From: a virus
DNA length: 64,000 nucleotides
IMG/VR virus record: IMGVR_UViG_3300023179_000011
Coordinates: 135,846 to 199,845 of that record
Reading direction: 5' to 3' (one strand)
Below the pieces are notes generated by a model. It saw nothing but the letters and a program-made list of their open reading frames with translations, had not been told where the DNA came from and made no database searches. The position numbers were made by a program, and so were the translations under genes. This document shows positions 42,062-48,279 of the stretch, one piece after another. Each line of letters starts with the position of its first letter. The first letter of the stretch is position 1.

Positions 42062-42145
42062 TCACATCCAGATGATGATGTCGAGGCCCAGATCCTCGTC
42101 TTCTTCGTCGTCTGAGGTAAAGATATCAAAGGCGGCGGCGCACAT
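42062..42145 (-). CDS. 27-aa acidic peptide (not in the ORF track)
   Basis: GGAGG RBS; MCAAAFDIFTSDDEEDEDLGLDIIIWM; TGA stop overlaps AGCTAAATA; perfect TATAAT at 42184-42189. Confidence 0.55.
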   Translation of the reverse strand: MCAAAFDIFTSDDEEDEDLGLDIIIWM

Positions 42146-42280
42146 ATGTACCTCCAGACGACAGGTTATTAAATCGTGTCGCAATTATACGATTTTGATA
42201 ACACGTCCCGAAGCTTAAGAAGTTCGTATGCGTTTTTCTTACAGCTATTTGACGTAAATCTTTGCGCGACAATACGTTAC

Positions 42281-42330
42281 GGCTAATAGCTAAAAAAAAG
42301 GCGCCCAAGACTTTCGTCGAGGGCGCCTTT
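42281..42330 (-). terminator. Intrinsic terminator plus junction motif
   Basis: AAGGCGCCC/GGGCGCCTT hairpin, T-run, GGCTAATAGCTAAA. Confidence 0.75.
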
Positions 42331-42425
42331 CCCAGAGTGCACTGTGGCATGCGGTGTGATATAGGAGGCCGGTCTGAAGAGCCAAAAAACACACCGAAAC
42401 ACCACAGCAACCCCGTTAAGGAGAA

Positions 42426-42519
42426 TACCTCGCTGGGAATTGCACCCAGCCTGCCGCGAGGGTTTAAGCCTCGCTGCCGCGCACCAAACGTGCGCCGCCG
42501 GCAGTGTCTCTAGTGAGGT
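42426..42519 (-). ncRNA. tRNA-like RNA with an expanded D-arm region
   Basis: ACCTC/GAGGT-A end stem; GCGAGG-CTTAAAC-CCTCGC arm; GCTGGG-TGCAATT-CCCAGC T-like arm; extra GCGCAC/GTGCGC hairpin. Confidence 0.6.
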
Positions 42520-42550
42520 GCAACCGCGCGGCCGCGCGGCTTAACTAACC

Positions 42551-42778
42551 CTAGACAGGCTCGAACTCGGCGTCGACAACCGTGTAGCTGTCGAAGTCGT
42601 CGTTCAGGATCGCCGCTTCCGCGGGGATGCACTCGCAGACGCCCAGTGCAAGGCTGCAGTGCAGGCAGCGCTCAGTGTCGACGTCCGGCGGCGCAATCGC
42701 CGCAGCCAACACAAACAGCATGTCCCGGTAGTCGTCCACATTGACCTTCACCGCCGGGTTGTTGCGCGGACCAGCCAT
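42551..42778 (-). CDS. Small Cys-containing hypothetical protein
   Basis: AAGGAGG RBS before MAGPRNN; CLHC...CEC. Confidence 0.65.
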   Translation of the reverse strand: MAGPRNNPAVKVNVDDYRDMLFVLAAAIAPPDVDTERCLHCSLALGVCECIPAEAAILNDDFDSYTVVDAEFEPV

Positions 42779-42964
42779 AATCTCGTCCTCCTTGAAGAGA
42801 AATAAAACAACCGCCGTCTCGTGGCGGCACAACGCTAATGGTCTCTCGCCATTAGACGGCCCCACCTATCACCGGGCAGGGGGTACGGCTGAGGATTGCT
42901 TAGCTCCCACGTAAAACCAGCCCACCTAGTGACTGGCGCGGCAGGAGCTATAGGTCCTCAATAG

Positions 42965-42992
42965 ATATGCCGTGTTTTTGGCAGATATTTAG
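42965..42992 (-). promoter_or_regulatory. Putative phage promoter, copy 6
   Basis: CTAAATA-TCTGCCAAAAACACGGC-ATAT. Confidence 0.75.
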
Positions 42993-43104: not shown

Positions 43105-43456
43105 CGTTAGCACAAGAAACGCTCGTGAGGACAGGTATCACTACCCGCCTACGCTCTGCAGCCGTTTGTTAGGTCACAGACAGGTTCGCGTTGTACGGAC
43201 GCAAACCTTTGTTATTTAAAACTAGTCTGGCAGGTCTTTCACCTGCATCACCCGCTCCCCTAGACGTAATGTTTAGTGTAGTCGAGTGGAATCACTTGGA
43301 ATAGCCAACGAGGCCCGGGCGGGGCAGCCCGCTATTCCGCCATTTACCCTAACGGTTCCTGCAAAACATTTCACGAAAACTGCTCGCCCAGCCCTCTGCA
43401 TGCACCTAGAGATAGGTTCATACACATGCTTCTCACGAGCGTTTCTTGTGCCAACG
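43105..43456 (-). ncRNA. Candidate large structured ncRNA (~350 nt)
   Basis: 25-bp terminal helix (20 bp perfect, plus one G-U on the minus strand); several internal hairpins; no credible ORF. Confidence 0.6.
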
Positions 43457-45176: not shown

Positions 45177-45431
45177 TGGATGTACCTTTCAAAAAAAAGA
45201 AAAACCGGGCGGGCCCTTTACGTTCCGGCCCTATAACCCAAGACGAGCTGCAGCTCTTCTTGGAAACCCTCCACGTCGAAATCCACGCCGCGAGATTCCC
45301 GCAGCGGTCTTCGATTGGTAAGGGATACCCGGTTAGACAACGGTGCGCTCAGGTATGCTAGCTGTCGCTGAATAGAAAGCTTGGGCCGTGGGCATACCAT
45401 TTTGGCCTAGTTTTTTCTACTCCCGTTGTGA

Positions 45432-46184: not shown

Positions 46185-46258
46185 TAACCCGGGTGGGAGT
46201 CGAACCCACAACAAGTAGATCCTAAGTCTACCGCCTCTGCCAGTTGGGCTACCGAGTT
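46185..46258 (-). tRNA. trnL: tRNA-Leu(TAG), short variable loop
   Basis: GTAGA-CTTAGGA-TCTAC; 5-nt variable region. Confidence 0.9.
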
Positions 46259-46600: not shown

Positions 46601-46625
46601 GTTGCTCCTTTGATAACAAAACCAA

Positions 46626-46696
46626 TGGGCCACCGGGGAGTCGAACCCCGCGTTGCGAGTTAATAAGACTCGCTTGCCAACCGGTTTCCGCGGCCC
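46626..46696 (-). tRNA. Atypical tRNA-like RNA (nominal anticodon TAT, Ile)
   Basis: 7-bp acceptor stem and canonical T arm, but G8, no clear D stem, a 6-bp anticodon stem and T37. Confidence 0.5.
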
Positions 46697-46759
46697 GCGT
46701 GGGCGGGGTGCCAGTAGCTTGGGCTACTACCAGCACCCCGCCGTCAGCGAGTCTACGCT

Positions 46760-48205: not shown

Positions 48206-48279
48206 TAGGGCCGGTGGGACTCGAACCCACAACACAGGGATTTTAAGTCCCTTGACTCTGCCAATTGGTCTACGACCCC
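48206..48279 (-). tRNA. trnL: tRNA-Leu(TAA), short variable loop
   Basis: AGGGA-CTTAAAA-TCCCT; 5-nt variable region. Confidence 0.9.

Follow-up and report, generated by a model that had tools for sequence, protein, structure and literature searches.

The 3'UTR of a small zinc-knuckle ORF in a lake phage encodes a 95-nt tRNA-like element which, judged by its sequence, is tRNA-derived and is probably a non-decoding tRNA mimic. It was found on the minus strand of the window, by which we mean the whole stretch of 64,000 nucleotides analysed here; these 64 kb stand at the end of an IMG/VR phage record that is 199,845 bp long and 98% complete. The phage was recovered from freshwater and lake metagenomes and encodes a multisubunit RNA-polymerase gene. 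All the window genes around the element lie on the minus strand, and five tRNA genes and one tmRNA, detected with ARAGORN and Rfam, are located 3–6 kb away from it. The element is surrounded by a run of short promoter-gene-terminator cassettes that follow the same border rule, the terminator being followed by TTTTAGCTAT in every cassette. The order within its own cassette is structured leader, 75-aa ORF, GC hairpin, element, long hairpin and intrinsic terminator, with the following features.

42551–42778, minus strand: 75-aa ORF upstream of the element, with an invariant CxxC...CxC (29 homologues, alignment A5).
42522–42541, minus strand: GC-rich hairpin between the ORF stop and the element, directly upstream of the latter (predicted fold).
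42426–42520, minus strand: tRNA-like element, short form, 95 nt (MFE fold; 117.6 bits with model R1; alignment A4).
42515–42520, minus strand: 5' strand of the end stem, (C)ACCUC (pair counts).
42505–42514, minus strand: 10-nt single strand ACUAGAGACA at the place of the D arm, identical in 7/7 variants.
42500–42504, minus strand: 5' strand of the middle stem, CUGCC, pairing with GGCAG at 42455–42451.
42476–42498, minus strand: hairpin A, an extra hairpin at the D-arm position, loop GUUUG (covariation).
42456–42474, minus strand: hairpin B, an anticodon-arm look-alike, GCGAGG-CUUAAAC-CCUCGC, with a 6-bp stem and a nominal anticodon UAA.
42451–42455, minus strand: 3' strand of the middle stem, GGCAG, from the distal CGGCAG copy (fold, RNAalifold and pair counts).
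42432–42450, minus strand: T-like arm, GCUGGG-UGCAAUU-CCCAGC, with a 6-bp stem and a T-loop-type loop (U-A to C-G covariation at one pair).
42427–42431, minus strand: 3' strand of the end stem, GAGGU, acceptor-like (pair counts); 42426 is the variable base after the stem.
42342–42407, minus strand: second long hairpin (predicted fold), in this phage only.
42289–42332, minus strand: intrinsic terminator closing the cassette, followed by the border motif TTTTAGCTATTAG.

The 75-aa ORF matched no Pfam or PHROG family, and its AlphaFold2 model (mean pLDDT 60.6) was too poor for a fold search. Its conserved leader of about 200 nt (window 42779–42990, minus strand) shows compensatory changes in at least three hairpins and ends with a terminator-like hairpin (42828–42810) and a U-tract immediately before the RBS. 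This leader has no Rfam match, is deleted in the related locus L152 and is a candidate attenuator or riboswitch-like leader. Two other observations concern the neighbourhood. A non-coding stretch of about 340 nt (window 43110–43449, minus strand) follows a sigma70-like promoter and is closed by a 19-bp long-range stem; it gave no Rfam match at E≤5. The next cassette (window 42062–42154, minus strand) has a strong RBS and encodes a conserved, highly acidic peptide (MCAAAFDIFTSDDEEDEDLGLDIIIWM) some 30 aa long, whose gene is called at 29–31 aa in most relatives.

When the 94 nt of the original prediction were folded, a minimum free energy of −50 kcal/mol was obtained (z −4.15; 0/200 shuffles folded as well), the dominant structure accounting for 67% of the ensemble. 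Its start is most likely at 42520, one base before that of this 94-nt call. Pairs 2–6 of the end stem are formed in 7/7 variants, where A-U is seen to become G.U and C-G to become U.G; at the outermost position two variants have C-G, two have A-U and three a mismatch, and the element encodes no CCA. The T-like arm abuts the end stem without any spacer, 5–6 bp plus 6 bp making a stack of 11–12 bp, and its loop UGCAAUU contains the equivalents of U54 and A58, with a G at the psi-55 place. The loop of hairpin B has the canonical 7-nt anticodon signature (C32, U33, A37). The D arm, with its stem of about 4 bp and its G18 G19 loop, is absent; the 10-nt single strand and the extra hairpin are found instead. 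The middle stem encloses hairpins A and B and has four pairs kept in 7/7 variants, with one G-C to G.U change. Hairpin A (GCGCAC-GUUUG-GUGCGC with outer GC/GC, 8–9 bp) has changed on both sides in 6/8 pairs across the variants, and its loop becomes CUGAUCA in a longer form of the element. Hairpin B carries the loop CUUAAAM in all variants, its closing pair being G-C or C-G.

The pieces listed in the original prediction, namely the end stem with an A at 42426, the CUUAAAC loop, the T-like arm, the extra hairpin GCGCAC-GUUUG-GUGCGC (inside 42498–42476) and CUGCC(G) at 42504 with two CGGCAG copies, are all in place on the minus strand. The two copies had suggested two possible folds. Both can form in the window sequence, but only the distal pairing is conserved: the proximal CGGCAG reads CGACAG in L148 and L165, and the long form lacks it altogether. 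Since the proximal copy is not kept in relatives, the idea of an alternative-fold switch fails. We also rejected kissing between the loops GUUUG (hairpin A) and UAAAC (hairpin B), which could occur in the window, as L148 and L165 alter both loops with no compensation. The second long hairpin is indeed present before the terminator (42407–42342), but none of the relatives carries one.

We then compared the element with its relatives. About 20 related loci were fetched through homologues of the 75-aa ORF; the element is found 3' of the ORF in seven distinct versions and is absent in over half of these loci. The short form (95 nt) is present in the window, L005, L148/L149 and L165, and the long form (115–119 nt) in L006, L152 and L164. 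An eighth variant came from a metagenome contig (run X10). On alignment A4, which holds the seven variants, 30 pairs were written out and then counted, and controls were made by sliding the partners by 1–3 columns. Paired cells amounted to 94.3%, compared with 34–44% in the slid controls, a conservation that is partly due to recent shared ancestry since modules are exchanged between these phages. Pairs changed on both sides numbered 10 (0–1 in the slid controls) and the covariation score was 0.27 (0.00–0.06 in the slid controls); because the sample consists of about eight closely related variants in two forms, many of the covarying cells reflect one short-versus-long split and not independent events. 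Examples of such changes are U-A to C-G in the T stem, G-C to C-G at the closing pair of hairpin B, and C-G to U-A together with A-U to G-C in hairpin A. The relatives folded independently and the RNAalifold consensus gave the same architecture, and G.U pairs in L005, L006, L148 and L152 assign the RNA to the minus strand. The arms, whose loss in homologues would have spoken against the original prediction, are kept in eight variants.

While the stems vary, no change is seen across the seven variants in the T loop UGCAAUU, in the B loop CUUAAAM, in CUGC/GCAG or in the linker ACUAGAGACA. The X10 variant has six substitutions within the element and all of them preserve the structure: a double A-U to G-C change at 42491/42483, three G-C to G.U changes and one A to G change in the T loop. 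Compared with the linker, B loop and T loop of the seven variants, the T loop alone is altered in X10; it reads UGCGAUU, the A to G change falling at the purine-57 position.

Looking at the likeness to tRNA, we found that the standard tools pass over the element. The Rfam tRNA model RF00005 gave no match at the gathering score, nor when the limit was relaxed to E≤10, whether 1.2 kb or 116 nt were searched. ARAGORN did not call the element at default settings, with introns or at the 80% threshold, and a relaxed run produced 164 calls, mostly spurious and none of them at the element. With the Rfam tmRNA (RF00023) and Y-RNA models there was no match to the element at E≤10, and the only other matches were at chance level, with mascRNA (E=1.2) and with the Tymovirus TLS (RF00233, E=6.3, covering the 15-nt T arm alone). 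ARAGORN and Rfam, both recommended with the original prediction, recognised the element as neither a tRNA nor a Y RNA.

In contrast to these family models, R1, a covariance model built from the element, reached true tRNAs when 3.1 kb were searched with the filters off. The best non-self matches were a tRNA-like gene at 46618–46695 (E 5e-5) and tRNA-Val (8.5e-4), followed by tRNA(UAG) (1.7e-3) and tRNA(UAA) (0.027), and R1 also matches ordinary tRNAs at unrelated phage loci. In the R1 matches to ordinary phage tRNAs, the linker lines up with U8-A9 and with the first half (5') of the D stem, and ACUAGAGACA looks like a relic of tRNA positions 8–16. It is because of these matches and of this alignment that we consider the element to be tRNA-derived. 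The identity of the loop in hairpin B points to a particular tRNA: CUUAAAA, one of the versions of CUUAAAM, also forms the anticodon loop in the tRNA(UAA) that the phage itself encodes (48206–48279). In a scan of the 200-kb genome, the loop on a stem of at least 4 bp was found in two hairpins only, hairpin B and the tRNA(UAA) arm. By our own estimate, a fixed 7-nt loop would match any of the phage's seven anticodon loops by chance in about 4 cases in 10,000. None of the true tRNAs of the phage encodes CCA, and the missing CCA of the element therefore fits processing by the host.

Several tRNA genes of these phages are themselves unusual. A second non-canonical tRNA-like gene (window 46618–46705, minus strand) combines a 7-bp acceptor and a normal T arm with a D region that is degenerate and an arm GCGAGU-CUUAUUA-ACUCGC (UAU-type loop, U at position 37), and is preceded by a 15-bp hairpin; it was missed by default ARAGORN and at the Rfam gathering score, and it shares AGCGAG...CUCGC with hairpin B. 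Two relatives have a syntenic 101-nt tRNA(UAU) (L160/L161, G001:110159–110285 and G002:115449–115575; L166:10169–10269) with two extra variable-region hairpins, the loop of one being CUGAUUA, close to the CUGAUCA of the long-form hairpin A. This tRNA scores 53.9 bits with the Rfam tRNA model and is not called by ARAGORN. The "Leu" tRNAs of the phage, UAA (48206–48279) and UAG (46185–46258), both on the minus strand, are 74 nt long and lack the long variable arm that a tRNA-Leu of bacterial type usually has; the relative G001 has an 88-nt tRNA(UAA) (L166:11218–11305).

The apparent tRNA origin, the patchy distribution and the presence of another degenerate tRNA-like gene in the window (46618–46705) would also suit a decaying tRNA(UAA) pseudogene, or a hitch-hiking remnant, devoid of function. 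However, every stem shows compensatory or G.U-type substitutions with 94% of the pairing kept, and the loops and the linker are invariant though the short and long forms are only 63–72% identical overall. We therefore regard a functionless remnant as very unlikely.

We also considered an aberrant but functional decoding tRNA for UUA/UUG, D-armless and using hairpin A as a D-arm substitute. The canonical C32, U33, A37 signature of the 7-nt loop agrees with decoding, and so does the geometry of the short form, in which the middle stem and arm B give 11 stacked pairs compared with 10 tRNA layers and the end stem and T stem give 11–12 pairs; in the window the base after the stem is an A, like in the phage's other tRNAs. 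The comparison of the variants argues in the other direction. Arm B has 6 bp in the short form, whereas that of the long form reaches about 13 bp, interrupted by internal loops, and is about 6 layers longer; the base after the end stem can be A, G, U or C, and the first pair is mismatched in 3/7 variants. Moreover ARAGORN and the Rfam tRNA model reject the element, and a normal tRNA(UAA) is already present in the phage and in relatives with or without the element. A link between the presence of the element and the tRNA(UAA) content was rejected as well, as both kinds of relatives possess this tRNA. Decoding is unlikely, and the probability that we leave to it is very small, the smallest of all the readings considered, but not zero because the geometry of the short form, taken alone, is compatible with it. 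The original view of a tRNA-like RNA that is not a decoding tRNA is thus supported by the comparative anatomy of the variants.

The distribution of the element was studied next to its structure. In L002, L150, L151, L153–L157 and L163 the ORF leads straight to the terminator and the element is absent. In L003, L004 and L147 (L147:2246–2900) an unrelated hairpin-rich insert of about 600 nt is found at the element's position; it gave no Rfam match at E≤1 and no match with R1. Searches with R1 showed that each element-bearing genome has a single copy, without paralogues, and found no copy in the whole 198-kb genome G001 (that of L002). Among GenBank phages, blastn detected no relative of the region, the tRNAs alone being matched. 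Exact-pattern scans gave 0 matches in 185,579 prokaryote genomes, both halves in two already known relatives only in IMG/VR, and one identical copy plus one chance match in the JGI metagenomes. The element is so far confined to one small clade of lake phages.

Within this clade, the ORF and the element do not evolve together. The ORFs of L148 and L164 are 88% identical, yet they are followed by different forms of the element, whereas L148 and L165 have ORFs that are 72% identical with elements 98% identical, the same values (72% and 98%) being obtained for L152 and L164. Strains are polymorphic too: in one lake sample the element form occurs together with the alternative-insert form, and a different metagenome contig has 139 other letters in place of 42305–42536. 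From this mismatch of identities and this polymorphism it follows that the content of the 3'UTR is a recombining, strain-variable module, and the distribution of the element is the pattern of an accessory, conflict-type module. A conditionally useful function fits such a distribution better than core mRNA processing does. As a separate observation, five relatives (L005:3343–3460, L148:2354–2470, L165, L152 and L164) have a different module 3' of the element. It is made of a hairpin CCUUUC-NNNN-GAAAGG that half-covers a strong SD, then of a 19–29-codon frame MRPPNKGRSVMSGSQERAR... that runs into the terminator; this frame could be a small basic peptide or merely RNA structure.

The distance from the ORF stop to the element is 8–30 nt across the variants, which is too short for a promoter of its own. 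As there is no room for a promoter, the RNA must be made within the mRNA, and then either be cut out or act in cis. A cis-acting processing or stability signal of the t-element or mascRNA type can account for this position; here the stack of end stem and T arm would guide RNase P (and RNase Z) to the transcript, set the 3' end of the ORF mRNA just behind the GC hairpin and leave a released piece without any job. The GC hairpin right before the element also speaks for it, since it is found in 5/7 variants and covaries (in L148, L165 and L006), and plant mitochondrial t-elements act in this way (PMC1920247). On the other hand, L152 and L164 lack this hairpin, the ORF occurs without the element in over half of the related phages, and neither the invariant anticodon-type loop nor the linker nor the branched body is required for cleavage. 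We hold such a signal to be rather unlikely.

A role in cis could also be played by a binding platform for a phage protein, either the 75-aa CxxC...CxC protein or the phage CsrA, that would regulate its own cassette. The element always lies within the cassette of the zinc-knuckle ORF, and invariant single-stranded segments suit recognition by a protein; but the ORF is kept in many phages that have no element, ORF and element are swapped independently, and no loop holds the GGA motif for CsrA. This makes a binding platform quite improbable in our view.

The explanation that we favour has, in our judgement, an even chance of being right. It states that the element is an excised, trans-acting, tRNA-derived and non-decoding look-alike, coming from the 3'UTR of the zinc-knuckle ORF and occupying a protein that reads tRNA. 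The trans-acting mimic is preferred to a cleavage signal because the invariant loop, the invariant linker and the branched body exceed what such a signal needs. The RNA would be transcribed as part of the 3'UTR of the small zinc-knuckle ORF mRNA. The tRNA body would have been rebuilt by loss of the D arm and gain of a branched two-hairpin domain, and the parts kept would be those that proteins recognise: the 11–12-bp stack of end stem and T stem, the T-loop elbow, which the invariant 10-nt linker probably holds in place, and the exact tRNA(UAA)-type anticodon loop. A stack of 11–12 bp with a T-loop elbow is the feature by which RNase P, RNase Z and the CCA-adding enzyme know their substrates. 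We think it most likely that host RNase P cuts the element out of the mRNA at its 5' end, followed by 3' trimming and perhaps by CCA addition; the enzymes would be those of the host since the phage has no CCA-adding enzyme and its tRNAs do not encode CCA. The released RNA would then act in trans by occupying a reader of the anticodon arm and elbow of tRNA-Leu(UAA), for example an enzyme that modifies tRNA or a defence enzyme with which the host cuts tRNAs. The fold with its conserved and covarying pairs, the resemblance to tRNA, the loop shared with tRNA(UAA), the exchangeable accessory status and the co-transcription context are shown by the data; the excision, the action in trans and the kind of target are what we infer.

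Anti-phage tRNases that cut anticodon arms, and countermeasures based on phage tRNAs, are documented (PMC10264068, PMC11555353, PMC13056530). Among the papers searched we found no decoy of such a build, and the role of decoy is a putative one. Searches of the phage genome revealed no CCA-adding enzyme, RtcB or Rnl2-type ligase; the Rnl1 search gave no match even among the control genomes. That Ro60, the CCA-adding enzyme, RtcB and Rnl2 are missing from the phage counts against the mimic, as no tRNA-repair or tRNA-mimic pathway is indicated.

A bolder version, which we think unlikely, is that the element could be a phage-made "bait" tRNA, a D-armless chassis released by RNase P that would soak up an anticodon-arm nuclease or another tRNA-reading immune effector. 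The bait would display one anticodon stem-loop (Leu-UAA), or two in the long form, where the second loop CUGAUCA resembles Ile-GAU. The real tRNAs of the cell and of the phage would be protected in this way, and strains would swap the element as a counter-defence module. Phage tRNA genes are now viewed as weapons against host tRNA-cutting enzymes; if true, a bait rather than a replacement would be a different phage tactic and would show a tRNA gene rebuilt into a new RNA. The small size of the element and its natural short and long forms make it readily testable. Annotation pipelines miss it, since it belongs to no Rfam family.

We finally compared the element with known systems. The element shares with canonical and phage tRNAs (RF00005) the order end stem, anticodon-type arm and T arm, the T-loop-type loop and the lack of an encoded CCA; it differs by the missing D arm, the extra CUGCC/GGCAG helix and the variable length of the anticodon-like arm. 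Thus the acceptor/T-arm stack and a 7-nt loop with U33 and a purine at 37 are those of a tRNA, whereas the model score, the D-arm cloverleaf, the fixed geometry and the conserved discriminator are lacking. D-armless mitochondrial tRNAs show the same swap of the D arm for a short unpaired stretch, the other arms remaining, but they take part in decoding and their anticodon arm is unbranched and constant in length, whereas the element has an added hairpin and a variable arm.

In bacteria and phages, the tRNA-like ncRNA YrlA is a substrate of RNase P and has CCA added to it (Chen et al. 2014, PMC4201824). Y RNAs of the YrlA type are likewise non-decoding, have a tRNA-like domain and occur in phages near tRNA genes. 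In contrast to YrlA, the element has no Ro-binding stem, and its ends are tRNA-like and free instead of being closed by a long helix; no Ro60/TROVE protein (PF05731) was found in the 98%-complete phage genome, whereas control genomes do match. Plant mitochondrial t-elements have a non-canonical tRNA-like fold behind an RNA whose 3' end is produced by RNase P cleavage (PMC1920247). The position of the element 8–30 nt after the stop codon fits the placement of t-elements and of mascRNA behind MALAT1, directly behind an RNA whose 3' end could be defined; these RNAs keep little beyond the acceptor and T arm, whereas the element also holds the invariant anticodon-type loop and linker.

The tRNA-like domain of tmRNA has the same topology as the element, with a single-stranded substitute for the D loop, a helix opening into a larger body and a stacked T arm; but the third pair of the element is C-G, so that there is no G3.U70, and its body is tiny. 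A tmRNA-like tag frame was rejected, as the peptides that would end at the UAA of the loop vary from one variant to another, and a separate full tmRNA is present in the phage at 45429–45785 (Rfam). Tymovirus-type TLSs are 3'-terminal, aminoacylatable and have a pseudoknotted acceptor, whereas the element lies inside a transcript and belongs to a DNA phage. Taken together, where they were tested, the defining features of each of these families are not found as a set in the element, which is a variety of phage tRNA-like ncRNA without an Rfam family.
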